Translations under genes and position numbers: made by a program
From: a virus
Lineage: Duplodnaviria > Heunggongvirae > Uroviricota > Caudoviricetes
Length of the DNA stretch: 64,000 nucleotides
Virus record (IMG/VR): IMGVR_UViG_3300043436_001089
Direction: 5' to 3' (one strand)
Shown: piece by piece, positions 1,399 to 63,904 of the stretch
Layout of the letters: every line of letters begins with the position of its first letter
Position numbering within the stretch: the stretch's first letter is position 1
Notes under the pieces: generated by a model
Database searches by the model: none
Told to the model about the DNA's origin: nothing
Seen by the model: only the letters and a program-made list of their open reading frames with translations

Positions 1399-2796
1399 TT
1401 ATCTTGAATAGTACTGGTTCAATACATTACTATTAAATCCAACATCAATGATGACTGGTTTACCTTGATATAATCCCCAATTAGCTGGTCTGTGAAAATC
1501 AGCTAGTTCAACGTCAAACGAGCTTTTCAATTCTGATAGTCTGTTGACGTATTCTAAGAATGTATCGGCATCCTGCTCATTAGATCCAAAATGTTCATTC
1601 TTGTCAATAATATCATTTAATATATCTCTAGACCTAGTACCATATTCATTAAGTTGCGCTTGTGCCGCTCTGATTAAATCATCAAGTGATTGGCACTTCA
1701 TTAGACTACACAATTGCTTTTCATTTGCCTTCTGTGCTAACTCAGTGTGGACCCAACTTGGTTCACGATTCTGTTCATCATAATCAATGATAGGGATTAG
1801 TATACCCATTTGACTAGCGTAGCCATCACTAAGAATATCAGCTTCTACACTGTTCTGTGCTAGACCTTTGGCATTCTTAGCAATTTTCAATACTGTAGGA
1901 CGACCTTCATATTCAATAGTTGTAGCAACACGACTAGACCCGACGCCTAGCTTCTTTGCACGTTCAAGCGCATAAGCAAGTCTTGACTTGAATGATGTAC
2001 CTTGCTGACGCATTTGTTGAGGATCCCAATCAGCCGGAAGAGGCATCTCGTCAATAATTTCTTCATTCACACTTGGATCCCAGAACATACTCTTAGAACC
2101 CTTTTGGGTTGGCTTAAAACCTTGTCCCTTATAGAACTTAGTTAATTTACTTTGACTAACTTGTCCTTTATCCCAAGGGAATAACGTAAGTATAATGCCA
2201 TCTTCTTTAGCTAATAACTGAAGTTCTTTCATAGCACGACTGCCCACGCCTTGACGTAACGGATATGCTTGGAACCATTTAACTTCTACTGCACCACGTT
2301 TACTGAAACTTGGAGTTAGTTCAAACACTGCGAACTGTTGTTCATCACCTTCACCCCAAACCATAACGTGATTGTTCTGCATAGTATGTGGATACTTAGC
2401 ATAGACTTTTTCAATCCATGCTTTAGCAGGTTGATTACCTGAAAGTGTAATCTTTTGTTCTTCCCACACATACTCATCTTCACCGCGATGCTTATCCCAG
2501 AAGCCTGAACCAGCTTTGGTTTGATCGTGACTTCTATTGATGATATAATCTTCACTCTTTAGGTAGTCATACATTGACTTGGCAATGCCACGATTACGAA
2601 AATCGTCATGCACCCAAAGATCCTGTGGATATAGGTCTTTGTTTTCTTTAACAAACTTTACATATGCTAATGGGCTTCTAGTAGTAGGCTCAAATGCCTT
2701 CATAACTAATGCACTGTCGTTGAATGCATACTTTAAAATCAAGCCATTGACCTTAGCAGACTTAGATTCTTCAGTGATAAATTCAGTTGCTCTCAT
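1399..2796 (-). CDS. GNAT-GNAT-protein-kinase-like tri-domain protein with capsid-targeting-like leader
   Basis: VHDDFRNRGIA and PLRQGVGS acetyl-CoA motifs; LGVGSSRVA/VLKIAK/NSVE/DFHRPAN/IIDVG kinase motifs; starts MRATEFITE. Confidence 0.75.
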   Translation of the reverse strand: MRATEFITEESKSAKVNGLILKYAFNDSALVMKAFEPTTRSPLAYVKFVKENKDLYPQDLWVHDDFRNRGIAKSMYDYLKSEDYIINRSHDQTKAGSGFWDKHRGEDEYVWEEQKITLSGNQPAKAWIEKVYAKYPHTMQNNHVMVWGEGDEQQFAVFELTPSFSKRGAVEVKWFQAYPLRQGVGSRAMKELQLLAKEDGIILTLFPWDKGQVSQSKLTKFYKGQGFKPTQKGSKSMFWDPSVNEEIIDEMPLPADWDPQQMRQQGTSFKSRLAYALERAKKLGVGSSRVATTIEYEGRPTVLKIAKNAKGLAQNSVEADILSDGYASQMGILIPIIDYDEQNREPSWVHTELAQKANEKQLCSLMKCQSLDDLIRAAQAQLNEYGTRSRDILNDIIDKNEHFGSNEQDADTFLEYVNRLSELKSSFDVELADFHRPANWGLYQGKPVIIDVGFNSNVLNQYYSR

Positions 2797-3656
2797 TATT
2801 GCCCCGTCCAGACAGCGTATAAGCCTGTATCCGAATTGTAGCCACCGTATACTTTACTTAATTTTGTATCAACGTAAGCCTTCAACTCTTGTTTAGTAGT
2901 ATCAGGTTTTACATCAAACGCAAAGTATTCATCATCGTGGCGTCCTTTGCCCATGTACTGCCCACCCAGTTGTCCCATGATGATGTCAATATTCTTGTTG
3001 ACTTGTGCCGGGGTAGTATCACTAAATCTGCTTCGCTCTGCATTAGGGTTTAGATCGTCATCGTCCATAGAAAAGTAACCCTTCATCTCTACGCCGGGTA
3101 TACTAGCAAGACTGAGCCAGTTTCTACGACCACCGGGTGTTTGACTACTTCCGGCAAGTAATGGACGCTTCATAATAGTTAGTACGATACCATACAACGC
3201 CTTAGCAAGACCTACGCCACGATAATCTTCATCTACTGTGATAGTGTCAACTTGTACTGCACCTTTTAGTGGGAAATATTTAGCGTCACTGACTGACAAT
3301 TTGCCTATCAATTGTCCCGGAGTATTTAAGTCACGTTGGCTACGTTCCCAAGAATAAAGTCTAGTACGATAATCATAGATAGACTCTCTTCGGTTACGAA
3401 CTGGTTTAGGTTCAATGCCTCTTTCTTTTTGCGCAATAAAGTCTTTACCGTTTGGATCCCAAAGTTTGATATCAATGCCTCCGTATCTACCTTCGCTAGT
3501 AGAATACAGCAATCCACTACCGCCGGGTAGTTTCTTTACTTGCTTACCAACTTGTTTGTCATAGAGGCTGTCTTTACCGCCGCTGTAAGCACTAGGAGTT
3601 AATCTTTCGATCTCGTCAAGTTCTTGTGTTTCGTTTATAAATTCTGTTGCTCTCAT
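2796..3656 (-). CDS. GNAT-family acetyltransferase domain protein
   Basis: VDEDYRGVGLAKALY motif A; starts MRATEFINE. Confidence 0.7.
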   Translation of the reverse strand: MRATEFINETQELDEIERLTPSAYSGGKDSLYDKQVGKQVKKLPGGSGLLYSTSEGRYGGIDIKLWDPNGKDFIAQKERGIEPKPVRNRRESIYDYRTRLYSWERSQRDLNTPGQLIGKLSVSDAKYFPLKGAVQVDTITVDEDYRGVGLAKALYGIVLTIMKRPLLAGSSQTPGGRRNWLSLASIPGVEMKGYFSMDDDDLNPNAERSRFSDTTPAQVNKNIDIIMGQLGGQYMGKGRHDDEYFAFDVKPDTTKQELKAYVDTKLSKVYGGYNSDTGLYAVWTGQ

Positions 3657-3730
3657 ACTGGACTATACGGATTTTTAAAGGTGTCGTATCCGTCATCTTC
3701 AGGATACACTGGATATTCATTTTCTCTCAT
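3653..3730 (-). CDS. 25-aa micro-ORF (MRENEYPVYPEDDGYDTFKNPYSPV)
   Basis: Fills the gap exactly, with ATGA start/stop overlaps to both neighbours. Confidence 0.7.
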   Translation of the reverse strand: MRENEYPVYPEDDGYDTFKNPYSPV

Positions 3731-4281
3731 AAACTTTTCCCCCATCTTGTATTTATAACATTCCAGTTTATGATCTTCCATTGTTCTTTCAAGTATTTTT
3801 TCTTATCAGAGCCATAGTCTAATATCCAAGCATGTTCCCACCAGTCAATCAGTAACAATATATCATTACGTACTTCATGATTCTTGATAGTTTTAATATC
3901 ACCTTTATCAGATAGATATATCCAGCCACTTCCTTGAATCTTCATTGCTTCTTCTTCAAACTTACTTTTCATACTATTATATGATCCGTAGTGTTTATCA
4001 ACAAATCCTAACATAGGACCGTTTGGTTTATTGTCGTTTCGTACTTCTCTGAATTGAGTGAACAGCATGTTGTGCAAGAATACACCTGCATAATTAAAGT
4101 CACTGTCTCCCTCTTTGTGATTATACCTATCAGCATAACCATGAGCTAACTTACCGTAATGTAATGCTATAGTTTCCTTGCTTAATACAGGAGAAACCTC
4201 ACGCTCAGTGAAGTTTAACGGGATAATTTCAATGTCTCTTGGCTTTGACTTATCCTCAAGCAACTCTATTAAGTCTCTCAC
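3727..4281 (-). CDS. sod: Fe/Mn superoxide dismutase
   Basis: LHYGKLAHGY, FLHN, GSGWIYL and IDWWEHAW supply the H/H/D/H metal ligands. Confidence 0.92.
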   Translation of the reverse strand: MRDLIELLEDKSKPRDIEIIPLNFTEREVSPVLSKETIALHYGKLAHGYADRYNHKEGDSDFNYAGVFLHNMLFTQFREVRNDNKPNGPMLGFVDKHYGSYNSMKSKFEEEAMKIQGSGWIYLSDKGDIKTIKNHEVRNDILLLIDWWEHAWILDYGSDKKKYLKEQWKIINWNVINTRWGKSL

Positions 4282-4718
4282 TCACGCTCTTTCTTTAGTA
4301 CCGAACGAATGAACCAAGCTTTCTTGCCATACAAGTCTTGTAGTTCAGCCATAAAGTTAGAAATACCTTGCTGATTTTCATTAGCGGCTTCATGAAACAT
4401 TTGAACAGCTAAGTTACACATTGTTTCACAATCTTGTAGTGATTCAACAAACATTAATTCAGCACGTGGAATCTTAGTTTGATCTTGAATAATTGATAGT
4501 TCACCATAACGTGTTAAGCTACCTGGAGTATAGTGACCTAAGATTCTGATATACTCAGCAATACGGTCAATAGTACCACTTACATCACCGTACAGTGTAT
4601 CAAAGAATTCGTGATACTGTGGAAAGTTACTACCTTCAACATTCCAGTGAAAGTTTTGACTTTTGATTGCAAACGCTTGTGTGCTTGCTAATAGTACTTT
4701 TAAGTTATCTGATAACAT
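4278..4718 (-). CDS. dps: Dps / ferritin-like DNA-protection protein
   Basis: QNFHWNVEG..F..YHEFF..LY and IDRIAEYIR..G ferroxidase motifs. Confidence 0.93.
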   Translation of the reverse strand: MLSDNLKVLLASTQAFAIKSQNFHWNVEGSNFPQYHEFFDTLYGDVSGTIDRIAEYIRILGHYTPGSLTRYGELSIIQDQTKIPRAELMFVESLQDCETMCNLAVQMFHEAANENQQGISNFMAELQDLYGKKAWFIRSVLKKERE

Positions 4719-6180
4719 TCTTTTTCTTTCTTAATCTGTTTTCTTCTAGATTGGCTGCATACTGAGGCTTGCCTGCTTTACGTGCAGCCAATCGTTTTTG
4801 TAATTCTGGATTCACCCCTTGTTGGCCTGGCTTGTATTGTGCAATGCCTTGACCAATAGCTGAGTTTGGTGTCGGCACGGGTGTTGTAGGTGTTGTTGGT
4901 TGGGCTGTAGTAGGTTGAGTTGGTGTTACCGCAGGTTTAGCTACTGGTGCCGCCGCAAACGGATCTGGTAATTTCAATTGTGCAAAAGCTGATGTGACCG
5001 CAGTATTTTCTATGCCTTGTGTTGTTAAGAATTTTGCCAATGCAACACTGTCAGTAGGACTGCCTGCCTTTGTCCATGCGCTTTTTAATTTGGCTGCATC
5101 AACTTTATTACCAGTCATACCAAACAATTCATTGAGTTGACTCTCTGTTACTTTTGCAGGAGCTTTAGCCCCGCCGGCTGCTTGACCTGCAACTGCTGAC
5201 AATGCGGGGCCTACTGAACTTAACAATGATGCTACTGCATTAGCCGCGTCACCAACTACTCCGGGCGGGATTTCTTTTACGGTACCCATAGCTTGTATGG
5301 CTGCATTCTGATACGCTTCAGAACCAATCTTTGCTAATGTCTTAGCCCAATTTGCGGCATCTGCGGCACTTGATGCATCCATTGCCGCACTAAGATCACC
5401 TATTTTAGCATTTCTCATTATTTCATTAGCGACTTTTTGTCCTTCACGATACGCTGCCATATCTTCTGGTTTTAGATAGAATTGAGCGCCATTGTAATTT
5501 ATACTGCCTACGCCACTAGACAAGAACTTAGTTGCACCTAATGCACTCAATGCTTCTCTAGCCTTAGATAATCCGCCTGCTGTTAGGCCTGCAACTGCGC
5601 CTGCTGTTGCGCCACGTCCGATAGCAGTAGATGCTTTTTGTCCTTGTAACAATCTGTCAGCAATATTAATAATTCCAGTTGCAATACCAGCACCTGATCC
5701 TACTGCTAACGCACTTGCTCCAATTCCGCCTGCTAATGCTACACCTAATGAGGCAGCAATAGAACCTGCGATTGCTAATAAGAACTTGTGCATCTTAGGA
5801 TTGTTCTTAGCATACTCTCCATACTTTGCTAACTTGGCAGCAATTTCAGGATGCTTAGTAGCAACGCTACTCTTAATAGATTCCCACTTCTCATCAAAGC
5901 CTTGAACTGGTGCACTATTCTGTAACATGCCACCAAACTTATTGAACCATGCATCACTTATTTTATCTTTGGCTGCTCCGACTACATCAGTAGCTCTACC
6001 CAACATACTACGACCTGCGTTTTGTTGTACTGTTGAAAATATTTGGTCAATCTGTGCAGGGTTTAGAGCCATCTCACATAATGTAGGATGAATCTCACGT
6101 TCCCATGTACTGAAGTACGTGTCACCTCTACCTATGCTTTCAAAGATAGATTGTTTTCTAGTTAAATCTAATGCTCTCAT
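4705..6180 (-). CDS. Ala/Gly-rich putative virion internal/ejection protein
   Basis: Long Gly/Ala hydrophobic segment, Pro/Thr linker and repeated x-x-E sites; no catalytic motif. Confidence 0.4.
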   Translation of the reverse strand: MRALDLTRKQSIFESIGRGDTYFSTWEREIHPTLCEMALNPAQIDQIFSTVQQNAGRSMLGRATDVVGAAKDKISDAWFNKFGGMLQNSAPVQGFDEKWESIKSSVATKHPEIAAKLAKYGEYAKNNPKMHKFLLAIAGSIAASLGVALAGGIGASALAVGSGAGIATGIINIADRLLQGQKASTAIGRGATAGAVAGLTAGGLSKAREALSALGATKFLSSGVGSINYNGAQFYLKPEDMAAYREGQKVANEIMRNAKIGDLSAAMDASSAADAANWAKTLAKIGSEAYQNAAIQAMGTVKEIPPGVVGDAANAVASLLSSVGPALSAVAGQAAGGAKAPAKVTESQLNELFGMTGNKVDAAKLKSAWTKAGSPTDSVALAKFLTTQGIENTAVTSAFAQLKLPDPFAAAPVAKPAVTPTQPTTAQPTTPTTPVPTPNSAIGQGIAQYKPGQQGVNPELQKRLAARKAGKPQYAANLEENRLRKKKNVIR

Positions 6181-6181
6181 T

Positions 6182-8419
6182 TTATTGTCTCAACTTTAAA
6201 CCTCTGTGCATAGCAGTTCCTTGTGCTGAAATTGGGCCTCCGTGTAGCCCATCACGTTCTTCACCATTACTATTGTACCACTTACCATCAGCGCCTTTCT
6301 TCAAAGGTTCTTTTGTTTGATAATCAACAGGTGTAAATGGTTTGTTACTACCGGAGTCACTTTGGGGAGAAACTTTTTGTTGCTTACCATTCATTCGTGC
6401 TTGTAATTCAGCTTTGGCGGCATCAATACTTACCATTGGTCTTTGATGTTCCCCAGAAACCACTTGTTGCAAGTATACATCGCTTAAACCACTAGGATTA
6501 AATTGTGCCTGTGCTTGCCCTGCACCGCCTAATGCTCCTAGTGCCATTGCACCTGCAGCCGCGGCATGCTTCCAATTGATTTCATCTACTTGTTGTAGAC
6601 CTTCTAAGATAGAACTTTCTTTTACTTTAACACAGTCATCTTTACCGTTTTCTGTTCCATTGTAGCGGTAGCCGGGCCAGCAAGCCTTACCATCAGCGCC
6701 TTTGATTTTTTCTTCTGCTACATCAGACTTCACAAAACCAATACCACTGCACTTGCCACATTTGTATTTCTTGGCATCTGGACGATTCATAGGATGAACT
6801 TCACCGTCATCTGTTTTGTAAACATAGCCCTTGCCATGGCATCTCTTGCAACCAGTCTGTGTTCTTTTTATAGTAGGACCTGGCATATGGTCTACTTCAG
6901 GATATCCACCTTCCGCCACACCTTGACCTAATACTTGTTTTACTAACAGTTGAGGAGCAAACTCCATATCACCGGCTAACTCTCTTGCGGCCGCTAATAC
7001 TGCTTGTGGAGTAGGTTGTAATCTTTTTTCTTCTACATCTCGGCGTAGTTTCATAATAAGAGATTGTGCATCATATCCTAAATCTCTAACGCCTTCCGCC
7101 ACACCTTGCTGTCTCTGTAGTTTGGCAATTCTTGCTTGATACATTGCTACATCTTTTGGACGCTTATATGGACCAGCAGCAATCTTCTTTAATTCATCTT
7201 GATATTTTTGGATCAAATATTCTGGAGTCATATATGAATCGTTGCCAGGATGACGGCGTAGTGGATCACTATAAGGGCGTCCATCCTTCATACCAGGTCT
7301 GTCACCTTCCGCCACACCTTGCTCTTTTTGAGAATCTCGGTAAAGTCTTTTCAAGTGTTTCAATGCTTCTTCTCTAGTATCCGGGCCAGCAACAAAAGAA
7401 TTACCCACTTGTGCAGTATAAAAGATCATACCGCTTTGTGTGGTAGTTGTTGTTATGCTACCAACTTTTTTACCTTTAATAAAAATATCTTCTACAGTTC
7501 TTTTTGTTTTTGCTTCATCAAGTTCAGCCTCCGCCACACCTTGCTCTTTGACTTTTTTACGCAAAGGATTAGTGGGATCATCTTGGAATCCTTGTTTGGC
7601 CCCTTGCTTGATATATTCATCATAACCAGATGGTCGCTTGATTGGTTTCTTGTCGTTCTTGGCCAATTTGGTAGGAACTCCCATCCAATCTGTTGGTGTT
7701 TTAGAGCCTTCCGCCACACCTTTGATAGTATAGTCTGGACGACTACGAACTGTTTCTTGATGTAGGTCTCTGAGTCCTTCGATTGCGTCTTCTCTGGAAT
7801 CAATAAAATCATTGCCGCTGTCCATACGATAATGGAAAAATCCCCAACCATTTTCGTCTTGATAAATCTCACCAATTGGTCTACCGTTGCGTAATTTAAT
7901 TACTTCGGCATTAGGGTAGATAGTATCGTTCGAGCCTTCCGTCACACCTTGCTCTTTAGGTGGGTTAACTGGAACAGTCTTATATACACGCTTGACAGGA
8001 TCCCACACAGTTTTGCGCTCACCTTGTTTAGCCATCTGACCTAGACGCTGAACTTTATCTTGATACTCAGGACCGTAATCTTGTTCTGCTTCAGATACAT
8101 TCTTTGATGCTATCTCATGAAATTGAGGACGACCAAATTGAAAGTTTGCTCTTTGAATTGGTATACGACTGACCCAATGGCCTCTATGATGTTGCAGGCC
8201 CAATTCTTTTGCTATACTTTCTTGACCAGTAGGTACATCGTATTCATATACACCGTTACGAGTTTCAGCAGAACTAGTTGGTAATTCATCTGGTTCATTA
8301 AGACCAGCATTTCGTTCGCCACTTAAATCGCTTCTACGGCGTGTATCCATGGCATTCTGTTGGTCTTGTTCATCACGATTAAAATAACCTTCATTCAAAC
8401 CTTTTAGAATATTGCTCAT
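6182..8419 (-). CDS. Modular polyprotein of QGVAEG-delimited cassettes (includes CxxCxGxG zinc finger, CWPGY module, internal signal-peptide-like segment)
   Basis: Six (Q/K)GV(A/T)E(G/A) linkers separate unrelated 60-76 aa modules. Confidence 0.8.
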   Translation of the reverse strand: MSNILKGLNEGYFNRDEQDQQNAMDTRRRSDLSGERNAGLNEPDELPTSSAETRNGVYEYDVPTGQESIAKELGLQHHRGHWVSRIPIQRANFQFGRPQFHEIASKNVSEAEQDYGPEYQDKVQRLGQMAKQGERKTVWDPVKRVYKTVPVNPPKEQGVTEGSNDTIYPNAEVIKLRNGRPIGEIYQDENGWGFFHYRMDSGNDFIDSREDAIEGLRDLHQETVRSRPDYTIKGVAEGSKTPTDWMGVPTKLAKNDKKPIKRPSGYDEYIKQGAKQGFQDDPTNPLRKKVKEQGVAEAELDEAKTKRTVEDIFIKGKKVGSITTTTTQSGMIFYTAQVGNSFVAGPDTREEALKHLKRLYRDSQKEQGVAEGDRPGMKDGRPYSDPLRRHPGNDSYMTPEYLIQKYQDELKKIAAGPYKRPKDVAMYQARIAKLQRQQGVAEGVRDLGYDAQSLIMKLRRDVEEKRLQPTPQAVLAAARELAGDMEFAPQLLVKQVLGQGVAEGGYPEVDHMPGPTIKRTQTGCKRCHGKGYVYKTDDGEVHPMNRPDAKKYKCGKCSGIGFVKSDVAEEKIKGADGKACWPGYRYNGTENGKDDCVKVKESSILEGLQQVDEINWKHAAAAGAMALGALGGAGQAQAQFNPSGLSDVYLQQVVSGEHQRPMVSIDAAKAELQARMNGKQQKVSPQSDSGSNKPFTPVDYQTKEPLKKGADGKWYNSNGEERDGLHGGPISAQGTAMHRGLKLRQ
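6909..7951 (-). repeat. Dispersed 17-nt in-frame repeat CAAGGTGTGGCGGAAGG, array 1
   Basis: Exact copies at 6909-6925, 7092-7108, 7305-7321; near-exact at 7527-7543, 7707-7723, 7935-7951; periods 183/213/222/180/228 nt, all multiples of 3. Confidence 0.95.
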
Positions 8420-9189
8420 TTTGATTTTCCTTCTGCCGCGCCCTGCTTGTAACCATTGAGATAAGTTGTTTTCATCAATGCGCTAGCCATATGCTGTTTG
8501 TTTTTCTCTGCGCCGGCTTTACCATCTTTGACGCCGGCTGAAAACACTTTCTTTGAAGCAGCTTTATGTGCGTCTGTTACTGGTCCGTATGCGGCTTTGC
8601 CTTCCGCCACGCCCTGAACTTGCTTACCTTCTAAGTATTCACGCACACTGTTTAGATAGTCATTGGCTTTGATAATCTTTTCTTGAACCCAGCCCTGTAG
8701 ACCTTCATCTTCACTAGTAGATTCTATCATCCTATAAATTGATTCTGCGTTCTTTGCGGCACTGATTAAATCACTGCGAGCCATCTCAACTTCATGGTCA
8801 ACACGACTCTTACCGTGTGGTACAAATCCAGTTTTCATTTTACGGCCTTGGCCGGGAACTAATACAATGTCTTCTTCTTCTAGTCTAGCTTCGCTGACTG
8901 GTTCAGGTTTAGCAGATAAGTTCTTACGAGCTTCCTGCTTAGTCATCTTGTATTTCTTTTTGAATTCTTCGTCTTTTAATTCTTTAAGATCCATTGATAG
9001 TTGCTTCATAGCACCTTCAGTTAAGCTATTAGCATAAGGACCTTTTTTCTTTGTTGAACCCTTCATGACTTTTTCTGCGGGCTGTAAGCCTGCGACTTGA
9101 GGTCGTGTCTGTACCTCACCTAAGGGTTTTGAAACTGTAGCTACTGATCCTGCAGTAGTAGTTTCATTGATAATTTGATTGATTTTCAT
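8416..9189 (-). CDS. Putative internal head protein, modular
   Basis: Starts MKINQIINE; QGVAEG linker at 8600-8616 and QGAAEG at 8429-8445. Confidence 0.5.
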   Translation of the reverse strand: MKINQIINETTTAGSVATVSKPLGEVQTRPQVAGLQPAEKVMKGSTKKKGPYANSLTEGAMKQLSMDLKELKDEEFKKKYKMTKQEARKNLSAKPEPVSEARLEEEDIVLVPGQGRKMKTGFVPHGKSRVDHEVEMARSDLISAAKNAESIYRMIESTSEDEGLQGWVQEKIIKANDYLNSVREYLEGKQVQGVAEGKAAYGPVTDAHKAASKKVFSAGVKDGKAGAEKNKQHMASALMKTTYLNGYKQGAAEGKSK

Positions 9190-9232
9190 AGCAATTCCGA
9201 AGTAATATAGTATTTATCAAAATACTATCTAA

Positions 9233-10249
9233 TCAGAATTTGCCGTTAGGATTCGCAGTTGGGGGTATGCCTGCTCTGTCAGTCAACCAAGAAAATGCTT
9301 TTGCATTCTTTTTGATACTGTCAGGTTTAATATCTACTGTTAATGCTGTCTTGAAACGAGGATCATTTTTCTCTTTTTCGCTTGGAATGTAACCACTAGC
9401 TTCACTTATTGATCCACGATATTGCCTATCTCGTTGACCACCGTATGGGTTTATGTCAGATGTTTTTTCTGAAGCATATTGCATTGTGTCTTCTTTTGCT
9501 ACAGGTAGTTCTTGAACCTTAACAGGGTCTTGATACATTGTTTCAAAACTTAAAAATTTGCTATGTAGCTTATCTCTTAGTACATACAATTTAGTAATAT
9601 ATCCCTGACTACGCAGTGCTTTGAATGCTAGATTCTCTGGACCAAACTCACCACCTTTATCTAGTCCTGCTTGACGATAACGTTTAATCGTCTTCAATAC
9701 TTTTTCAACTTTGTGCAGGTCTTTAGATAATAACGCTACTTCAACTACTTTTAGTAGTTTTTCATACTTTGCTTGTGTTGCAGTATGGTCAAAATTTGCT
9801 CTACGCTTAGTAGGTAATCTTAACCATTCATTGTGTAATATGCTGTATTCCCCTAAGCTAACTACAGGTTCATTAGCGTCTTGTACATATAACTCTACAG
9901 GCACCTTGTTTACAGTTATGTCGTGAGAATCATTGTATAACGTTTTCTTCGCATTAAACAATTCTTTATAGACTTCATCGTTGTTTAGTCCATTAGTATC
10001 TACTAAGATATGCAGGTCTAAGTCACTATGATTTGTATAGCTATAGGCTGCGTTTGATCCTGAAACTGTTATGTCTTTTACATCTAAGTCATCTACACCT
10101 AATTCTTCTAAGAAATCTTTCGCTATCAATATTAGTTGATCCTTGACCGCAGGCTTAAGACGGTGTCCTGTCCATAATGCAGGATTTAAATGATCGTGGA
10201 AAGTAACTGCGTCTGACAGTTTGAAGGAATCAAGCTCTTTTAAGTTCAT
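9233..10249 (-). CDS. Pol-beta-superfamily nucleotidyltransferase
   Basis: VSGSNAAYSYTNHSDLDLHILVD (GS..DxD) plus a downstream VELYV-D strand. Confidence 0.75.
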   Translation of the reverse strand: MNLKELDSFKLSDAVTFHDHLNPALWTGHRLKPAVKDQLILIAKDFLEELGVDDLDVKDITVSGSNAAYSYTNHSDLDLHILVDTNGLNNDEVYKELFNAKKTLYNDSHDITVNKVPVELYVQDANEPVVSLGEYSILHNEWLRLPTKRRANFDHTATQAKYEKLLKVVEVALLSKDLHKVEKVLKTIKRYRQAGLDKGGEFGPENLAFKALRSQGYITKLYVLRDKLHSKFLSFETMYQDPVKVQELPVAKEDTMQYASEKTSDINPYGGQRDRQYRGSISEASGYIPSEKEKNDPRFKTALTVDIKPDSIKKNAKAFSWLTDRAGIPPTANPNGKF

Positions 10250-18163: not shown

Positions 18164-18170
18164 AGTTTCC

Positions 18171-18983: not shown

Positions 18984-18988
18984 TCTCA

Positions 18989-19017: not shown

Positions 19018-19018
19018 T

Positions 19019-54339: not shown

Positions 54340-56412
54340 TTATAATCTTCCGACGGCGACTTCAATGACGCCTTCGATACCGTCAAAGTCTTCTAGTGCT
54401 TTGCCGATAACTGTTCCCATTGCAGGGTTATTCCATGGTCTTGCAAATCCATTACCTGCAGATACCATCATATCACCTTTGCGTATTGTACCACGTACTT
54501 TAGTTGGCACACGACCTTGTAGAGCGATTGCTACAGCGACACCTTGACAATTAGCATTCATTGCATATGCAGGGTTAGTCGATACAACACCTGCTACCCG
54601 AGTAGTCCCATCTTCTGCAATTGTAACTTCTTTATCACCACCAAATGCCAACACAGTGCCGGGTTCATACTCAGCATCCGCCTCATAATATTCTGCTAAG
54701 TCAGCGTAAGTCGCTTGTAATTTAGAACCAGTACTCAACGACCAATTACCAGTTATAGTACCTGCATTTGTATTTGCACCCGTTGTTAGCGTCATGTTAT
54801 TGCCACTAATAGTTTGAGCATTAGCAAATGTCAAACTAGTAAATGATGTACTAACACTAGTGATGTTAGGTTGAGCCGCAGTTGTGACAGTACCTGCATT
54901 AACTGCATATGTTGCATTAGCTACAGTACCGGTAACATTAGCACCGGTTAGTGCAGTCAAGCCTGATCCATTGCCGGTAAATATACCAGTGTTAGCTGTA
55001 ACTGCAACTGCTGTTACGGTTCCATTCACCCCTAAACTCGTTAGTGTACCAACACTAGTAATGTTAGGTTGAGCCGCAGTTGTGACAGTGCCTGCTGTAG
55101 CTACATTTAAGTTAGCAACTTGAGTAGTTGATGAGACTACTAACGGGGCAGTACCGGTTGCTACATTTGATATTAGTCTGCTAGCTGTAACATTGCCGGA
55201 AGTAAGAATGTTAGAACCAGTGACGTTTCCGATGGCAACAATAGTTGTGCCGGCTGCTATTGATGTGTTTGAATTTAGGATGGTTGCAGACAAATTACCA
55301 GTTGCGGCATTAAAGCCTAAATTAGCGTTAGCAGCCAATGCTCTGTTTGCTGTTGAGCTACCATTGACAAATACAGGGAAGAATGTTCCTGTAGTTTGTG
55401 CAGTTGTGACACCAAAATCACTTACGTTAGAGTAAGCAACACTTAAGTTACCTACACGTGTTGTACTTGTGACTGTTAGTGGAGCAGTGCCAGTAGCAAT
55501 ATTAGATACAATGTTTGCCGCAGTAACAACTCCGGATGAATTTAAGTTAGCAACGTTTGCATTACCATTCAATGTTAATAAGTTTGTAGTGAAGTTGTAC
55601 GTAAAGTCAGCATCACCATCTAATATATTATTATTGTTGAACTGTATAGTTGTGTTTGATCCGCCGGCTGCGGCTGCACCTGAACTTCCTAAGGAAGTTA
55701 TTGCCAAGGCATTTGGAGAGTTAGTATATGATATGTTCGTGCTAGTAGCGGCAGTCGTCAACGATATGTCAGAGTATAGTCTTACGTTACCAGAAGTTGC
55801 AAAGTCGCTAGCGACTTTAACATAGAATGTATTGCCATTAACTACTGTGTTTGAAACGCCGTTTGCACCGCTGATAGTAATAGCAGTGCCGTTTGTATAA
55901 GGTGTAGTGTTTGCTACTGTTACTAAAATAATGTTTGCATTACCTGCATCACTAGTAATACCTAAAATGTTTGCTCTTAGTGTACCCTTGCTAGTCCAAG
56001 ATAGGTTACCCTGACCGTCAGTTTCTAGTACGTAACCGATAGCACCGCCACCGATCTTAACGTTAGCTACATTACCTAGATGAACCGGGGTGTTTGAGAA
56101 ATACGATGAGTTACCTGGATCTAATGCATTACCGCCTGTGTTGACCCAGACGTTAGATAACTTGTCATAAGCCATTATTTGGCCAGTGACTACGTTATTT
56201 GAAATATCTAAGTTACCGAATGAGCCGTCGATTTGACTGAAGCTGATGTTAGAATATGAAGTTAAAACCTCAACATTCTCATTCGGAGTTGTTTTACCAA
56301 TAAAGAGTCGTTTGGCATCACTAGCCCAACCTAATTCAGCTTCGTCAAGCTGAGGTAGGTCTACTAGATTACCTGATCTTTGTTGGATTTTCGAGATTTG
56401 TACTATAGCCAT
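54340..56412 (-). CDS. Tail fibre with C-terminal intramolecular chaperone (Peptidase G2/IMC-like)
   Basis: ELGWA.D..RLFIG N-terminus; YADLAEYY...GTV...GVVSTNPAY..GRVP.KV.G.I.KGD C-terminus. Confidence 0.8.
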   Translation of the reverse strand: MAIVQISKIQQRSGNLVDLPQLDEAELGWASDAKRLFIGKTTPNENVEVLTSYSNISFSQIDGSFGNLDISNNVVTGQIMAYDKLSNVWVNTGGNALDPGNSSYFSNTPVHLGNVANVKIGGGAIGYVLETDGQGNLSWTSKGTLRANILGITSDAGNANIILVTVANTTPYTNGTAITISGANGVSNTVVNGNTFYVKVASDFATSGNVRLYSDISLTTAATSTNISYTNSPNALAITSLGSSGAAAAGGSNTTIQFNNNNILDGDADFTYNFTTNLLTLNGNANVANLNSSGVVTAANIVSNIATGTAPLTVTSTTRVGNLSVAYSNVSDFGVTTAQTTGTFFPVFVNGSSTANRALAANANLGFNAATGNLSATILNSNTSIAAGTTIVAIGNVTGSNILTSGNVTASRLISNVATGTAPLVVSSTTQVANLNVATAGTVTTAAQPNITSVGTLTSLGVNGTVTAVAVTANTGIFTGNGSGLTALTGANVTGTVANATYAVNAGTVTTAAQPNITSVSTSFTSLTFANAQTISGNNMTLTTGANTNAGTITGNWSLSTGSKLQATYADLAEYYEADAEYEPGTVLAFGGDKEVTIAEDGTTRVAGVVSTNPAYAMNANCQGVAVAIALQGRVPTKVRGTIRKGDMMVSAGNGFARPWNNPAMGTVIGKALEDFDGIEGVIEVAVGRL

Positions 56413-56465
56413 AAGTGTATTCTTTAAAAGAGTTACACTTATTTATCATAATCCCGACCATTACG

Positions 56466-57152
56466 TTAGATGAACTGCATGTAATATTGTTCAACTCGTT
56501 TGAACCACATGTCAGTATATTTCGCAAATTCTTGACCCTCAATGATGAATTCTTGATAGATATTGTCTGCGGTACACATAAAAATCACACCCTTACTAAT
56601 ATTTGTACCGTGTACTTCATTATGTGCGTTAGCATAGGCTGCTAACTGAACAAAATAATCATCAATCCACTCACGCTTTTTTAACTTGTTAGATTGTTTG
56701 TGATCCATGATAGCGGGGCTACCATCATGAACGCCAACCAAGTCAGTTGTTCCGGCATATACTTTAGGAAAGTAAAGGGGAACTTCTGTACCCCAATATT
56801 CATTGCACTTGACAAGTCCTTGTTGAATGATTGAATGTGCCATCTGATGGCTTTGAATGCTATATGGATTGCTTCCGGGTTCACCTGTTTCTCCTGTTTT
56901 GATATAGTTCTCAAGCCACTTGTGCATTCGTGTTCCACGACCTGCGGCTTCTGTTGTAATTTGCTGTGCTTTTTGAACCCCAACACGTTTGCGCCATTCG
57001 GTGAGTGCTTTTTTTGATTCTTCACTTTTAGTTGCGTCTAGGATAGTAGTGACGCTAGGTAGTTTCTCACCATCGGGTGTAGCATAACGGCGTTTACCGT
57101 CAATCTCTACCCTACTCATTGGGATATAATTATATTTGTTGGGTATGTACAT
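56466..57152 (-). CDS. PD-(D/E)XK exonuclease
   Basis: LPSVTTIL, RGTRMH, AGTTDL, IMDHKQS, QLAAYA. Confidence 0.88.
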   Translation of the reverse strand: MYIPNKYNYIPMSRVEIDGKRRYATPDGEKLPSVTTILDATKSEESKKALTEWRKRVGVQKAQQITTEAAGRGTRMHKWLENYIKTGETGEPGSNPYSIQSHQMAHSIIQQGLVKCNEYWGTEVPLYFPKVYAGTTDLVGVHDGSPAIMDHKQSNKLKKREWIDDYFVQLAAYANAHNEVHGTNISKGVIFMCTADNIYQEFIIEGQEFAKYTDMWFKRVEQYYMQFI

Positions 57153-57158
57153 TTGCTA

Positions 57159-57188
57159 ATTTTAGCATTAATGTAGTGTAAAGGTCAA
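57159..57188 (-). promoter_or_regulatory. sigma70 promoter for exonuclease
   Basis: TTGACC-18nt-TAAAAT with extended TG; 6 nt before ATG. Confidence 0.6.
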
Positions 57189-57964
57189 TTAATTTGGCTA
57201 CCGCGCCAAACAGTTTCGTTGTCTCTAGTACGCGGCTTTTCAGTCAATCTAAAACTATTCAACGTTAAATACTCTCCTGAGATAACAGAGGGCGTTTGAT
57301 ACTGTCTAATTATTTCATTGTATGCGTAATCTGCTAATACAACTTGTGCTTCAGGCCCATCGTGCCCACAAGGCAATGCAGGATAATCTCTAGTGATTTC
57401 ATAAAACGGTGTAACTTGTCTAATATTATTGATACAAGTATCAACTATATTTGGAAATCTAGTGCGAACTTTCTCTATTATTTCATCACGATTGCTATCA
57501 CTTGCATAGTCACTCATTATATAAGGAATGTCATGTGCTTTGAATAAGTTCATTAATGATAGCTTATACAAATAGGTTTTTCTATAGAAATCTACATCGT
57601 TCCAGTTATCAAGTAACGCACGTTCTACATTTGTTTTTGGATTAGAATCTGGTAATGACACTATAGTGTAATCATTGTAATCCTTATGTCCTGCAAATTC
57701 GTTATACCAAGATTCTCTTCTCCAATATTGGCTCCATGCAATAACAAAGAAAGGCTTACTACCGGTTGGTAAGTTTTCATAAACATATTCATGTGTTCGG
57801 CGATGAATGCTATCATTGCCGCAACCACGAACTGCTAAGTTAACAACTTTTACTCCTAATTTTTTTGCAAGCAATGTTGGCCATCCCTGCTGTACAGGAT
57901 CTTTTAATCCCTGGCAATAGGTCCAGCTACAACCATTTACTACTAAATGAGTGATTTCTGGCAT
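57185..57964 (-). CDS. SGNH/GDSL hydrolase-like protein
   Basis: VNGCSWT, NLAVRGCGND, terminal GHDG. Confidence 0.65.
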   Translation of the reverse strand: MPEITHLVVNGCSWTYCQGLKDPVQQGWPTLLAKKLGVKVVNLAVRGCGNDSIHRRTHEYVYENLPTGSKPFFVIAWSQYWRRESWYNEFAGHKDYNDYTIVSLPDSNPKTNVERALLDNWNDVDFYRKTYLYKLSLMNLFKAHDIPYIMSDYASDSNRDEIIEKVRTRFPNIVDTCINNIRQVTPFYEITRDYPALPCGHDGPEAQVVLADYAYNEIIRQYQTPSVISGEYLTLNSFRLTEKPRTRDNETVWRGSQIN

Positions 57965-58335
57965 TAGTGTTTTTTTCTATAATCTTCTACTGCGGCTTTG
58001 ATGGCATCTTCTGCTAGAATACTGCAATGTATCTTAACCGGAGGTAGTGCTAATTCTTCTGCTAGTTGCGAATTTTTGATACTTGCAGCCTGGTCTAATG
58101 TTAGACCCTTAACTAACTCGGTTACTAAACTGCTAGAAGCAATAGCACTACCACAGCCGTATGTCTTAAAACGTGCATCTGTAATTATACCATCTACTAC
58201 TTTGATTTGTAACTTCATTACATCACCGCATGCAGGTGCGCCAACCATACCGGTACCTATAGTATCGTCTATGTCAAATTTACCCACATTGCGTGGATTT
58301 TCATAGTGGTCTACAACTTTATCTGAATAAGCCAT
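57964..58335 (-). CDS. iscU: Fe-S cluster scaffold
   Basis: YSDKVVDHYENPRNVG, APACGD, GCGSA, KIHCS. Confidence 0.97.
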   Translation of the reverse strand: MAYSDKVVDHYENPRNVGKFDIDDTIGTGMVGAPACGDVMKLQIKVVDGIITDARFKTYGCGSAIASSSLVTELVKGLTLDQAASIKNSQLAEELALPPVKIHCSILAEDAIKAAVEDYRKKH

Positions 58336-58655
58336 TATACTCTAAAACTTTCTCCGCATCCACAGCGGTCACGTTCATTTGGGTTACTAAATTCAAACCC
58401 TTCGTTCAATCCAGTACGTACATAGTCAATTGTCATATTCTGTATATATGCACAACTTTTGGGGTCTACGAATAAACTGCAACCTTCACAATCTATTTGT
58501 ATATCTTCGGGATTAGGGTTGTCAACATACTCAAGCACATAGGCTAAACCAGAACAGCCTGTCGTTTTGACGCCTATTCTGATTCCTATGCCTTTGCCAC
58601 GTTTGGCAATTGTTTGTTGTACTTTTTTGCTTGCTTTGTCAGTAAGAGAAATCAT
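58335..58655 (-). CDS. iscA: Fe-S cluster A-type carrier
   Basis: GVKTTGCSGLAY and CGCGESF. Confidence 0.97.
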   Translation of the reverse strand: MISLTDKASKKVQQTIAKRGKGIGIRIGVKTTGCSGLAYVLEYVDNPNPEDIQIDCEGCSLFVDPKSCAYIQNMTIDYVRTGLNEGFEFSNPNERDRCGCGESFRV

Positions 58656-58976: not shown

Positions 58977-59702
58977 TTATCTCTTTGCTCTACCTGCGCC
59001 TGCAACTGGCTCTGGTTCAGGCTCTTCTGCAGGAAGTTCTTCAGCTCCCATGTCATCCATCGGAGGCATTTCTGCACCAACTTCTCCACCTAATCCAGCG
59101 GCTGCATCACCCGCCATTGCATCTACGCCTGCTTCTTCAGGGGCGCCTACGCCAAAATCACCGCCTTGGCCAGTGATTGCATTCAATGCACCTTGTAGTG
59201 ATGTTTTAGCTTGTGTTAATGCGGCTGTAAGACCAGTCAATGCTTCAGTAGCTTGGCTAGTGAATTGCTCACCTTCGTTCACGCCAATTTCAGATTGTAC
59301 GCTGTCTGATAAAGCCGGCAATTCTTTGACTAGCATATCAGATACTTGTTCAACCATCTTCTGTACAGAGTCAACCATATCTTGTGCAGCCAAAACAACT
59401 TGTGACTTGTCAACTTCTTCGTTCTCAAAAACGATGCGTGGTTGAGGTCTATTGCGTAAGTCATTAAAGTGATGCACTAATGCTTGTTCCATAAATACCA
59501 TCTTCATGTAAGCAGGACTTGTCTGCTTTCTATAAAAGTCAGAAGCTTGTTTAGTTTCACTAATTAAGCCACGTACTTTTTGTAGCATGGATTTAGTAGA
59601 AGTCATAGACATGCCTTCTACCTTGAAGGGTACTTCGTATTGTTCTTTTAAAGCTCGTTGAGCATTTAAAACGGGGTTGTAATTGAGTTCGTTTAATTTC
59701 AT
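58977..59702 (-). CDS. Putative prohead core/internal protein
   Basis: MKLNEL start, helical body, acidic Pro-rich tail; late box. Confidence 0.4.
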   Translation of the reverse strand: MKLNELNYNPVLNAQRALKEQYEVPFKVEGMSMTSTKSMLQKVRGLISETKQASDFYRKQTSPAYMKMVFMEQALVHHFNDLRNRPQPRIVFENEEVDKSQVVLAAQDMVDSVQKMVEQVSDMLVKELPALSDSVQSEIGVNEGEQFTSQATEALTGLTAALTQAKTSLQGALNAITGQGGDFGVGAPEEAGVDAMAGDAAAGLGGEVGAEMPPMDDMGAEELPAEEPEPEPVAGAGRAKR

Positions 59703-60720: not shown

Positions 60721-60738
60721 GTTTTGATTAAGTTAAAA

Positions 60739-61193: not shown

Positions 61194-62393
61194 TTAACGT
61201 TGTCCGGCTAAGTTTTGACGACTAAAGCCCATTCTATCAACGAATTTTAACCCATTAGAGACAAAGCCTTCTTGAGTCTGTGTTCCATCTTGCAAGAAGC
61301 CCTTAACTGGGCTAGTTTCTGCTGCCTTGTTAAGTTGCTCTACTATGTTCATTTTTAAATTATATAGATTACTCCACACCGTGAACAATGCTGTCAATAC
61401 TGACTTGTTACCATCTAGATATCCCGGGACATGCACTTCTTTGTTGGTCTTAGGGTCAAGTGTGTTATATCCTAACAACTTACTACGTAATCCTTCGGAC
61501 ATTGTTTTTGTGCTGATATACTCAAGAAATCCGTCTACCAAATCGTTTAAATTACCTGAGACAATTTTCTTGTTGATATACGTTGTGAATAACATAGTGA
61601 ACGGACCTTTAGCTTGAGGTGCTTTACCAAAGAACTCATCAATTTGTTTACCGTATTCTCTTACGCTTTGTTTGGCGGCTCTAACTAAGTCTGCGTTCAT
61701 CTTAAGTTTAGGAGTGATTGGCATCTTTGCAGGAACAATAGCAACATCGCTGTTATTCTTCAATGAACCAATAGTACCCGGTAATGGTGAAGCTTCATCA
61801 GTGGTCGCCGCCGTAGGAGGAATAAATTGATGCACTACGATACCAGCAGTCTTGTTCGTTAAAAACTTACCAACATCACTGTTGACATCTACTGTATAGG
61901 TAATACCGTTAGGGTTCGCTCTAAAAGTATACACACCTCGTTGATCGTCTAAAGGCTTACTGAATAGCAAATCACCCCAGTAATAACCCTTACCCTTATC
62001 AGCTTTTTCTAAACCAGGCCATATCTCTTGTATGAGTTGATGTAAACCTTCACGATTCACCCCTCTAGCGATATCATATTGAACAAACATTTCAGGACTG
62101 TACACGTTACGACCCGTACCGTCTTTCTTGTTGAACATATGCTTGTCCATAATACTAAACTTACCATTGGTACCACGACCGAAGATCAATGCAGGATAAC
62201 CGTCCCATTTAATAGTGACAGTAGCCGGGTTCTTTACAGTATCAATTGATGCTTGTATTGCACGATTCGCACCCTGAGAACCGTCTAAAAATATTAGGTC
62301 TTCGGGATGGTCTAAGTGACCTTTAGCCTCAGTAATAACATCTATACTGTTAAGCTTGTTCTTTAATAACGATAATGATTCTGACAAGTTCAT
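61194..62393 (-). CDS. ATP-dependent ligase-like (KxDG) nucleotidyltransferase
   Basis: IKWDG motif I, YWGDLL motif III-like, EGFV motif IV, KFV motif V. Confidence 0.55.
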   Translation of the reverse strand: MNLSESLSLLKNKLNSIDVITEAKGHLDHPEDLIFLDGSQGANRAIQASIDTVKNPATVTIKWDGYPALIFGRGTNGKFSIMDKHMFNKKDGTGRNVYSPEMFVQYDIARGVNREGLHQLIQEIWPGLEKADKGKGYYWGDLLFSKPLDDQRGVYTFRANPNGITYTVDVNSDVGKFLTNKTAGIVVHQFIPPTAATTDEASPLPGTIGSLKNNSDVAIVPAKMPITPKLKMNADLVRAAKQSVREYGKQIDEFFGKAPQAKGPFTMLFTTYINKKIVSGNLNDLVDGFLEYISTKTMSEGLRSKLLGYNTLDPKTNKEVHVPGYLDGNKSVLTALFTVWSNLYNLKMNIVEQLNKAAETSPVKGFLQDGTQTQEGFVSNGLKFVDRMGFSRQNLAGQR

Positions 62394-62395
62394 AA

Positions 62396-63904
62396 TTACC
62401 ATTTCTTAAATGGTTTAGCTTTTCTGCTTTCTGCTGTTACAGTTGCGCCTGCGGGTGCAGGGGCGGGTGAAGTTGCAGGCTTAGGAGGCGGGTTGAATTC
62501 TGTTTTAGGTTTTTCAGAAGGAACTCCTGCCGGGGCTTTTTGACCAGTCAGTTCTTTAACAAACGCAGAATAGGCTGCTGGATCAACTTTTTGTAATTTT
62601 TGAAGTGCGTTCTTAGCTACAGTGATTAACTGATTAGCATTTTGATTAGCACCGTCTGCTTGTGCAGTAGACGGGAGGGCACTGGTAGCTCCTAAGCTAC
62701 CTGCCATTGTATTCGAAGGGGTCGCTTCACCTGAAGTAGGACTTGTCGTGGCACTAGTATTACCTGCCATTCTAGCTAATGGACCGCCACCTGAATCAGT
62801 TGAGGCTACGGGTGCTGGAGTAGAAGCTGCCGCACCCATTGCACCTGGTGTGCCTTTATTGCTATATGACAACGAGAATGCCGCATTAGCTAATTGATTT
62901 AGTGCAGCCTTGCCCTTGTCTTTATTATACGACTGTTGAATAGCATTGATATACTGGTCTACTTGCGCCGCAGTTTTAGGATCAGATAAATCTACACCTT
63001 TCATATACTGAGCTAACCAACGTTTAAACCAACTTTGAATGCTTTCGGCTTCAGCTTCATACATCATGCTTTCAAAGATTTTGTTTAGCTTGTAGTACTT
63101 GGTCTCAACAATCTTGAACTTAGAACCTTTTGATTCTTTAAGAACGGTAAGACCTAAATCACCCCATGTCAAATCAACAGCTTCTAATAGTTTGTTGATC
63201 CAATACATTTGCCATGACTCAGCCATTGTCTGACCTGATTTGAGTTTACCAAGTGCGGCATTTGCAAAATTAGGATCAGTACCACCCTTCTTGATTATTT
63301 GCTGAACAGTAGCAACAGCGTTGCCCCACTCAGGGTAATCTTTGCGGTCAGCCATGTAATTGACTAATTCTTTTGTCAATTGAATCTTTTGATTCTTGTC
63401 TGTTGCAGTGTTTAAAGCTTTGGCAGCACCTTGAACGTAATTGTTTAGATTCTGATTAGTTTCACGTTGACCACGTGCTTGGGATGCGGCTTGTTGTGCC
63501 GAAGTCATTCCGGGCTTAGTAGCTCCTGATGGCCCTGGTGCTGGGGTAGGTCCCGGAGTCGGTGCTGGACTTGGTGAAGGACTAGGAGTAGGTCCAGGAG
63601 TCGGTGTTGGTTCTGGAGTCGGTGTTGGTTCTTTTGGTTCTGGTGCTGCCGGAGCACCTCCTAAATTAGGATCAACAAGTCCGCTAGAAACCGCACTATC
63701 TAATGCAGTAGATGCACGGCCGATAAAGTCTTGTAGGAACTTGTCTTTTGCCATTTTATCTTTTACAGATAAATTGCCTTCGCCACGACCTAAAAGTCTG
63801 TTGCCTATTTGTTTGGCTGCGGCTGCGCCATAATCACCTATTACTTGATTTAGTGCAAGTTCATCCACACGTTTGTGTTGTAATTTGAATTCATTTAATT
63901 TCAC
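62396..63904 (-). CDS. Pro/Ala-rich modular putative internal protein
   Basis: MKLNEF start, VDE/MAE/MYE sites, PTPTP linker. Confidence 0.45.
   Translation of the reverse strand: MKLNEFKLQHKRVDELALNQVIGDYGAAAAKQIGNRLLGRGEGNLSVKDKMAKDKFLQDFIGRASTALDSAVSSGLVDPNLGGAPAAPEPKEPTPTPEPTPTPGPTPSPSPSPAPTPGPTPAPGPSGATKPGMTSAQQAASQARGQRETNQNLNNYVQGAAKALNTATDKNQKIQLTKELVNYMADRKDYPEWGNAVATVQQIIKKGGTDPNFANAALGKLKSGQTMAESWQMYWINKLLEAVDLTWGDLGLTVLKESKGSKFKIVETKYYKLNKIFESMMYEAEAESIQSWFKRWLAQYMKGVDLSDPKTAAQVDQYINAIQQSYNKDKGKAALNQLANAAFSLSYSNKGTPGAMGAAASTPAPVASTDSGGGPLARMAGNTSATTSPTSGEATPSNTMAGSLGATSALPSTAQADGANQNANQLITVAKNALQKLQKVDPAAYSAFVKELTGQKAPAGVPSEKPKTEFNPPPKPATSPAPAPAGATVTAESRKAKPFKKW

Follow-up and report, generated by a model that had tools for sequence, protein, structure and literature searches.

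N-terminal leaders resembling T4 capsid-targeting tags on unrelated proteins of an uncultured jumbo phage and its relatives

The 64,000-nucleotide (nt) stretch of viral DNA analyzed here (hereafter the window; IMG/VR record IMGVR_UViG_3300043436_001089, Caudoviricetes) encodes approximately 12 unrelated proteins that begin with a short peptide ending in Ile/Leu/Val-x-Glu. Tags that target proteins to the capsid and are removed by processing are textbook T4 biology, and the leaders described here are probably tags of this T4 type, processed by a protease and carried by capsid-internal proteins. In the literature searched, we found no published description of such tags in this clade of jumbo phages.

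A sequence-only reading of the window had listed 12 such N-termini and compared them with T4 MKTYQEFIAE and MELITE. All 12 were confirmed as true minus-strand open reading frame (ORF) starts, and the comparison agrees with the T4 record, in which IPII and IPIII begin with MKTYQEFIAE/A, IPI with MKTFKEF...ITE/A and Alt with MELITE (a slash marks the known or predicted cut; P1 is the Glu, P3 the residue two before it). We added three candidates, with starts at 6180, 10249 and 37991. The 15 genes are given below together with their counterparts in G002, a 249.6-kb IMG/VR contig that is collinear with the window at 68-88%, mostly 70-76%, nucleotide identity.

1399-2796, minus strand: GNAT-domain protein of 465 amino acids (aa) with a phrog_4301 domain (Pfam GNAT, E 7e-8); leader MRATEFITE/E, nt 2770-2796.
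2796-3656, minus strand: GNAT-like protein, 286 aa, Atlas features 0.97 to viral GNAT clusters, no Pfam match; leader MRATEFINE/T, nt 3630-3656.
3727-4281, minus strand: Fe/Mn superoxide dismutase (SOD), 184 aa, with a 16-residue N-terminal extension (Pfam Sod_Fe_C, 5e-22); leader MRDLIELLE/D, nt 4255-4281.
4705-6180, minus strand: protein of 491 aa for which family searches found no family, without a G002 orthologue; added candidate leader MRALDLTRKQSIFE/S, nt 6139-6180, of medium-low confidence.
6182-8419, minus strand: cassette polyprotein, 745 aa, with seven internal joints of the Q-G-V-A-E-G type; leader MSNILKGLNE/G, nt 8390-8419, identical in G002.
8416-9189, minus strand: cassette protein, 257 aa, with GVAEG and GAAEG joints; leader MKINQIINE/T, nt 9163-9189 (G002, MKITQIISE/T).
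9233-10249, minus strand: phrog_36119 protein, 338 aa, with a nucleotidyltransferase-like GS...DLDL motif; added candidate leader MNLKE/L, nt 10235-10249, conserved in G002, of medium confidence because a site at residue 5 is short.
14987-15160, minus strand: 57-aa protein; leader MAKIVTE/S, nt 15140-15160 (G002, MAKIISE/N).
19629-20186, minus strand: member of the virion structural protein family phrog_13138, 185 aa; leader MTRKIINE/G, nt 20163-20186 (G002, MTKILNE/G).
34490-36841, minus strand: fast-evolving protein, 783 aa; leader MNLKDMLAKMSQLSE/A, nt 36797-36841.
36860-37483, minus strand: 207-aa protein; leader MKSLKHYITE/S, nt 37454-37483 (G002, MKSLKQYIAE/S).
37509-37991, minus strand: phrog_16202 protein, 160 aa; added candidate leader MTKKLQELFE/L, nt 37962-37991, conserved in G002.
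58977-59702, minus strand: member of the virion-protein family phrog_14154, 241 aa; weak leader MKLNE/L, nt 59688-59702 (G002, MKLND).
61194-62393, minus strand: DUF6267 protein, 399 aa, with a KWDG motif; 24-residue add-on MNLSE/S ... VITE/A, nt 62328-62393.
62396-63904, minus strand: 502-aa protein with a GTG start; leader MKLNE/F ... VDE/L, nt 63860-63904 (G002, the same GTG start and MKLNEF, then LNE and LSE sites before the conserved block).

Enrichment over the first 15 aa was found relative both to the internal rate and to shuffled N-termini. We scored motifs ending at residues 5-15 and shuffled residues 2-15, keeping the N-terminal composition of each protein, so that the enrichment is not accounted for by a bias in codons or composition. 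Under the a-priori T4 rule [ILV]xE, 18 of the 66 window genes scored against 8.3 expected, a count reached in 0/2000 shuffles. The refined motif [ILV][NTS]E was present in 12/66 genes (shuffle mean 2.1, 0/2000 reaching 12; 1.7 genes predicted by the internal rate, Poisson P ~2e-7) and in 21 genes of G002 against 6.6 expected (0/2000); since the [NTS] refinement was picked post hoc, the a-priori figure is the safer one. For the complete 338-kb genome of a relative (G004), [ILV]xE gave 72 genes against 47.9 expected (0/1000), i.e., an excess of approximately 24 genes. T4 itself, put through the same screen as a positive control, yielded 63 genes against 46 expected and returned IPI, IPII, IPIII, Alt, gp21, gp22, gp24 and gp68; given the high chance rate in this control, single genes need extra support. 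The genome-wide count for the cultured phage PA5oct with the broad motif (86 genes against 66.5 expected) was noisy and confounded by many tiny early ORFs, and its direct orthologues were therefore examined instead.

Such support came from conservation. Orthologues in G002 keep the leader site even where the remainder of the protein has diverged; for 34490-36841, which is 42% identical overall, the leader reads ...QLSE/A in the window and ...QLNE/A in G002. Among 69 relatives of this protein (36-96% identical), 67 keep [LI]-[SNTA]-E/[AG] at residues 13-15 and the remaining two have LTE/A at residue 20, so that all 69 have the site, and an upstream M-[DN]-F-K...L-L pattern is also conserved. 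A tblastn search with 34490-36841 and a blastn search with 36860-37991 each gave no match. The SOD fold begins at residue 18 according to the Pfam match, and Leu/Ile7 and Glu9 of the leader are kept in 80/80 SOD relatives, as are R2 and I5; the gene starts with ATG in all 80 contigs and with GTG in the window. For the DUF6267 protein, the Pfam match starts at residue 26 and the homologues in T4-like cyanophages lack an N-terminal extension and open with the conserved block; in G002, NLSE/S is kept and VITE is replaced by LVED. That the SOD and DUF6267 leaders are N-terminal add-ons to enzymes is thus supported by the alignments. Taken singly, the sites at 59702 and at residue 5 of 63904 are weak, as is VITE of 62393. 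The 58977-59702 product is probably a virion protein, and its cleavage at residue 5 is doubtful.

The GNAT gene and its GNAT-like neighbor led to a portable leader, their MRATEFIxE being the only part that the two proteins share. IMG/VR was scanned with the DNA string common to four MRA leaders, ATGAGAGCAAnnGAATTT, a pattern that does not cover position 9. At least 120 loci were obtained, with 137 ORF starts among the matches listed and an estimated handful of chance matches. Although unsearched, Glu9 was present in 129 of these 137 listed starts, while position 8 varied freely (T, S, K, V, N, A, I or R). The cargo behind the MRA leader falls into at least 24 clusters unrelated to one another, most of which stayed unnamed in the PHROGs comparison; the Pfam-named cargo in related contigs comprises ART-PolyVal, GNAT + ART (ADP-ribosyltransferase), a Zeta-toxin-type kinase, Amidoligase_2, GH19 (lysozyme) and DUF6321. 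In one MRA-cargo protein (L218:2010-2663), PHROG comparison gave a weak similarity (E 2.4e-4) to the protein kinase of the T7 gp0.7 type, an inhibitor of host transcription.

The clade also has the machinery that such leaders would require. In G002, a prohead protease of the gp21 type (56966-57601; PF03420, Peptidase_S77, E 8e-29) lies approximately 2 kb from a gp23-type capsid gene (PF07068, E 6e-99), within a T4-like head module that comprises the portal, a 77-aa protein starting MKLFE/, a 270-aa acidic protein starting ...LIELIINE/, the protease, the scaffold and the capsid protein. Importantly, the motif is present on the canonical gp21 substrates of the clade, i.e., scaffold, major capsid protein (MCP), protease and the small head-core proteins adjoining the portal. 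The G002 scaffold has 24 [ILV]xE sites. In the G002 MCP, ILE34/ and LSE43/ immediately precede the first block alignable to mature T4 gp23*, a position compatible with the maturation site of T4 gp23 although the alignment to it is not exact. A PF03420 protease was found in four of the five large MRA-leader contigs, including all three that are at least 90% complete, and one of these protease-bearing contigs (G003) also has a tagged SOD. The gp21-type protease is likewise present in 121Q and PA5oct. The record nearest to the window (G001) is a 35-kb fragment in which neither protease nor MCP was found.

In T4, gp21 cuts after L/I-X-E, and the 10 N-terminal residues of IPIII are enough for targeting; within this tag, targeting depends on residues 4 and 7 and processing on residues 8 and 10, and Asp at position 10 blocks processing but leaves targeting intact (PMC9026906). 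MRATEFITE and MRATEFINE share the E-F-I-x-E core of MKTYQEFIAE, and the SOD and other leaders share with the T4 tag only a basic residue 2 and the P3/P1 pattern. In T4 (NC_000866) we also observed that the uncharacterized ORF 61.1 (18966-19130, 54 aa), beside the primase gene, starts with MKTFKEFIKE, near the internal-protein tag, and that gp2 starts with MAIFQIINE.

Repeated Q-G-V-A-E-G joints were found inside 6182-8419, 8416-9189 and the following gene:

12524-14602, minus strand: cassette polyprotein, 692 aa, with an NMNAT-like (CTP_transf_like) N-terminus and an ART-like module; five V-[AS]-E/G joints and no N-terminal leader.

This protein was counted as related because its modules elsewhere follow MRA leaders directly. 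Two MRA-cargo clusters (c4 and c19) match its residues 272-356, i.e., the ART-like module, which in other contigs stands directly behind the MRA leader, with the leader I-x-E aligned to the joint V-A-E. Similarly, a Cys-rich module follows a joint in G002 and an MRA leader in another contig. Joints in G002 include GMAEG and GVAEE, and EVNE/G stands at one joint homologous to a GVAE/G joint of the window. As the same cutting rule fits the Gln-Gly-Val-Ala-Glu/Gly joints, we propose from these sequence comparisons that leaders and joints may be two uses of one protease code. The G002 protein at 131403 (MRIKELTE/S...YHAT) was considered as an ART-like cassette of the 12524-14602 type and gave no significant BLAST match; the link between leader and cassette comes instead from the other contigs. 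Cassette lengths differ between the window (6182-10249) and G002 (228303-233182), i.e., 745 vs 606, 257 vs 427 and 338 vs 576 aa, while the leaders are identical or nearly so, pointing to frequent in-frame gain and loss of modules. The G002 orthologue of 12524-14602 has 374 aa vs 692.

Virion data are available from cultured relatives. Window proteins are 27-33% identical to those of the jumbo myoviruses PA5oct, Atu_ph07, 121Q and XacN1, and the PA5oct record labels proteins detected in purified virions 'ESI-MS/MS'. The relevant PA5oct proteins are as follows:

EST35_0261, beside ClpS and annotated hypothetical: orthologue of the SOD (3727-4281); N-terminus MNDSIKKYISIAE/A; in virions.
EST35_0237: orthologue of 58977-59702; N-terminus MFLKDVKITE/S; in virions.
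EST35_0202: orthologue of 36860-37483; no motif at the N-terminus; in virions.
EST35_0201: orthologue of 37509-37991; N-terminus MTKRLEE/; not detected in virions.
EST35_0296: orthologue of 19629-20186; no obvious motif; not detected in virions.
EST35_0150 and EST35_0151: small head-module proteins, MKINDIITE/G in EST35_0150; in virions.
EST35_0153: scaffold; N-terminus MTVKFEHILNE/Q; no ESI-MS/MS label, as expected for a degraded core.

Thus, three of the five orthologues of tagged window proteins, including the SOD, were detected in virions by mass spectrometry. Additionally, 121Q gp63, an annotated virion structural protein related to 19629-20186, starts with MKKKLNE/Q. The PA5oct paper reported '7 virion-unrelated enzymes' in the particles and offered no explanation for them; bubblegram imaging has revealed unidentified, DNA-embedded internal head proteins in 121Q and phAPEC6 (PMC7247149); and the RaK2 capsid protein runs smaller than predicted.

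Taken together, the data are consistent with a T4-type pathway in which the tagged proteins would be made late and enter the assembling prohead core, where a gp21-type prohead protease would cut after the Glu of (Ile/Leu/Val)-x-Glu and thereby remove the tag. The mature cargo, i.e., the SOD, the GNATs, the DUF6267 enzyme, the cassette polyproteins and several other proteins, would stay in the capsid with the DNA, and the same protease rule would serve the internal Gln-Gly-Val-Ala-Glu/Gly joints. Given the likeness to the T4 tag, the packaged cargo can probably be read from sequence. We are less certain that the tag itself, and not something else, does the targeting. The sequence-only reading had gone further, regarding the set as injected for immediate host takeover or anti-defense; injection, such a role and any action of the cargo in the host would follow solely by analogy with T4.

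That reading had also named the cargo, with mixed outcome. The SOD holds, by its Pfam match and the PA5oct orthologue in virions. The carriers are mostly unrelated: all-against-all BLAST showed no paralogy among most tagged window proteins, and the MRA leader spans its many clusters. Its plural GNATs comprise one that is solid (Pfam) and a second suggested by language-model features, and its ligase-like enzyme would be the DUF6267 protein, by its ligase-type KWDG motif. A kinase was not confirmed in the window, where 8416-9189 has a weak Walker-A-like GFVPHGKS; the MRA-tagged Zeta-toxin-type kinase belongs to a related contig outside it. Besides DUF6267, the only Pfam names within the tagged and cassette proteins of the window were GNAT, SOD and CTP_transf_like, the cassettes being multi-module and mostly unannotated.

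Several observations weigh against reading the leaders as T4-type tags. The motif is short and the broad [ILV]xE form occurs by chance at that position in approximately 15-18% of genes (T4 control, PA5oct), so that the 12-15 calls probably include false ones; the preference for [NTS] at P2, noticed after the fact, is weaker in G004; and in two cases G002 has Asp at P1. The protease and capsid genes of this phage lie outside the window, and the machinery is deduced from relatives at ~70-76% nucleotide identity; for this phage, cleavage, packaging and ejection are predictions by analogy. Two of the five PA5oct orthologues (EST35_0201 and EST35_0296) were not detected by mass spectrometry and another, EST35_0202, is in virions without the motif. 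Finally, 12524-14602 has joints and no leader, from which it follows that the leader would not be the sole route into the head.

EST35_0202, in virions without the motif, and 12524-14602, with joints and no leader, also favor an alternative that we consider unlikely, namely that the leaders are mere propeptides removed by the protease from head proteins, whose incorporation is directed by other parts or partners and many of which are structural and not ejected. It would fit with P3 and P1 being the only positions strictly common to all leaders, with leader lengths that vary from 5 to 22 residues and with the assignment of several tagged proteins to 'virion structural protein' families. However, residues upstream of P3 are conserved within families (SOD R2 and I5; the M-[DN]-F-K...L-L pattern of the 34490 family), and the E-F-I-x-E core recurs in two leaders from the T4 tag, in which residues 4 and 7 direct targeting (PMC9026906). 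Moreover, the carriers include soluble enzymes (SOD, GNAT) that would otherwise have no cause to enter a capsid.

It is quite improbable, in our view, that the leader is read by another machine, e.g., phage Clp/AAA+ chaperones, and acts as a signal for the unfolding, translocation or timed degradation of its carriers. At 15899-18983 the window encodes a ClpB/ClpA-like ATPase and DnaJ, with the 754-aa AAA+ protein (phrog_4871) and DnaJ adjoining virion genes; the PA5oct SOD orthologue adjoins ClpS; and Iyer et al. 2021 speculated that such AAA+ proteins move proteins into heads (PMC7824862). The motif, however, fits the gp21 rule exactly, also marks the gp21 substrates of the clade and is equivalent to the internal joints. 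To our knowledge, no Clp tag has this form. Chance combined with the composition of N-termini or the codon bias of strongly expressed late genes (early codons rich in A/T yield Lys, Asn, Ile and Glu), for which the K-, I- and L-rich N-termini, the three-residue motif and the high background in T4 and PA5oct might speak, is scarcely credible and is largely refuted by the composition-keeping shuffles, which never reached the observed count, and by conservation, with Glu kept in the MRA (matches listed), SOD and 34490 families while P2 varies and enzyme homologues outside the clade lacking the extension.

Returning to the interpretation as T4-type tags, the likeness to T4 lies in an N-terminal element of 6-19 residues ending in L/I-x-E on unrelated, partly enzymatic cargo (T4 Alt is an ART), and in the gp21-family protease and gp23-family capsid protein of the clade. 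Unlike in T4, Val is allowed at P3, there are several leader sequence classes, the cargo includes SOD, GNAT and DUF6267 proteins, and the site would be reused as an in-frame joint in cassette polyproteins; the number of tagged genes also far exceeds that of T4 (~12-15 in 64 kb, and the ~24 excess genes of the complete G004). The polymorphic internal-protein loci of T-even phages, with CTS-like (capsid-targeting sequence) leaders on variable basic proteins (PMC9026906, section 3.1), offer a similar combination of conserved leader and fast-changing cargo. The MRA leader is conserved even at the DNA level (ATGAGAGCAAnnGAATTT), and tagged genes form arrays at 1399-10249 in the window and in contig L133 (IMGVR_UViG_3300025417_000665; 413-2419), with four MRAxEF leader genes within 3.2 kb, an arrangement reminiscent of the T-even loci. 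In contrast to those loci, the cargo here is mostly larger and includes recognizable enzymes, and T4 is only a distant relative of this jumbo myovirus.

In the giant phages phiKZ, 201phi2-1 and SPN3US, many internal head proteins (head and inner-body or ejection proteins) are cut after Glu, some at several sites, by a diverged gp21 homologue (gp175/gp245; PMC5694885, PMC7411985, PMC10052503). P3 is small in these phages (S/A/G-x-E), whereas here every leader has I, L or V at this position, as in T4, and the joints have V or M; furthermore, the leaders are much shorter here and there are no paralogous inner-body families. The MRA cargo repertoire (ART-PolyVal, GNAT+ART, Zeta-toxin kinase, amidoligase, GH19) recalls the polyvalent proteins (Iyer, Burroughs, Anand, de Souza, Aravind 2017, PMC5512222), and both groups are predicted to be delivered with the DNA. 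For polyvalent proteins, autoprocessing by an embedded metallopeptidase was proposed (PMC5512222), whereas processing by the prohead protease is predicted here; no HExxH was found in the tagged window proteins, and one tagged G002 protein (234283) has HELVH. The bubblegram proteins of 121Q and phAPEC6 (PMC7247149) are internal head proteins in cultured members of the wider jumbo clade, and two virion proteins of 121Q, gp50 and gp63, begin MKYNQLQE and MKKKLNE, respectively. Tagged proteins are only candidates for these densities, and the relationship to the window is distant (27-33% identity).

Should the tag act as it does in T4, sequence alone would suffice to list the proteins that a widespread group of uncultured jumbo phages packages and probably injects, and the list would hold unexpected enzymes (SOD, GNATs, ART modules). 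This would explain the 'virion-unrelated enzymes' of PA5oct particles, supply candidates for the internal head proteins seen in 121Q and phAPEC6, and furnish natural tags with which foreign proteins could be loaded into large capsids. PA5oct, 121Q and phAPEC6 are cultured models for the question. A wider picture is possible, though we judge it somewhat short of probable: in this very abundant jumbo clade, a single protease code may double as N-terminal address tag and in-frame joint, by which each genome would load approximately two dozen swappable proteins into the capsid. The entire injected set would then be readable from sequence, and it may include an SOD delivered with the DNA, a so far undescribed injected antioxidant that possibly counters oxidative host responses at entry.

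The remainder of the window (GC ~40%, nearly all genes on the minus strand) encodes tail sheath, tail tube and neck proteins, a clamp loader, the ClpB/ClpA-like ATPase and DnaJ, as well as PstS, IscU/IscA, a Dps-like protein and the Fe/Mn SOD. Megablast of the structural region against cultured phages gave no match, and each conserved gene tested is carried by more than 590 IMG/VR contigs. Several iron and oxidative-stress genes are thus present, with IscU and IscA at 57964-58655 and the Dps-like protein and SOD in the 3727-4718 region, where the Dps-like gene lies upstream and its stop codon overlaps the GTG start of the SOD (GTGA); the Dps-like protein has no leader. The PstS gene (10451-11458, minus strand; G002 132821-133828, 89% protein identity) lies among the cargo genes in the window and ~95 kb from the syntenic position in G002, indicating relocation of this auxiliary gene. 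In G002, a GIY-YIG-type homing-endonuclease-like ORF (56343-56969; MTIAYVYKWTN...YVGS) is inserted between the genes for prohead protease and scaffold, and in PA5oct a Hef-like homing endonuclease directly follows the capsid gene.

A box, GATAAATAC(T), resembling the T4 late promoter TATAAATA was present in 11 copies on the coding strand and one on the other. The coding-strand copies are:

9217, 10260, 15191, 20813, 25443, 34421, 37509, 38002, 46271, 54024 and 59734, minus strand: late-promoter-like box GATAAATAC.

The box stands 3-24 nt upstream of six candidate leader genes, among them 8416-9189 (20 nt), 9233-10249 (3 nt), 14987-15160 and 36860-37483, and 92 nt before a seventh, 2796-3656. 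It was also found upstream of five tail, neck or other virion-module genes, at a distance of 83 nt in the case of 54024. As the gap between box and ATG is only 3-5 nt in several cases, leaderless or near-leaderless late mRNAs would be implied.

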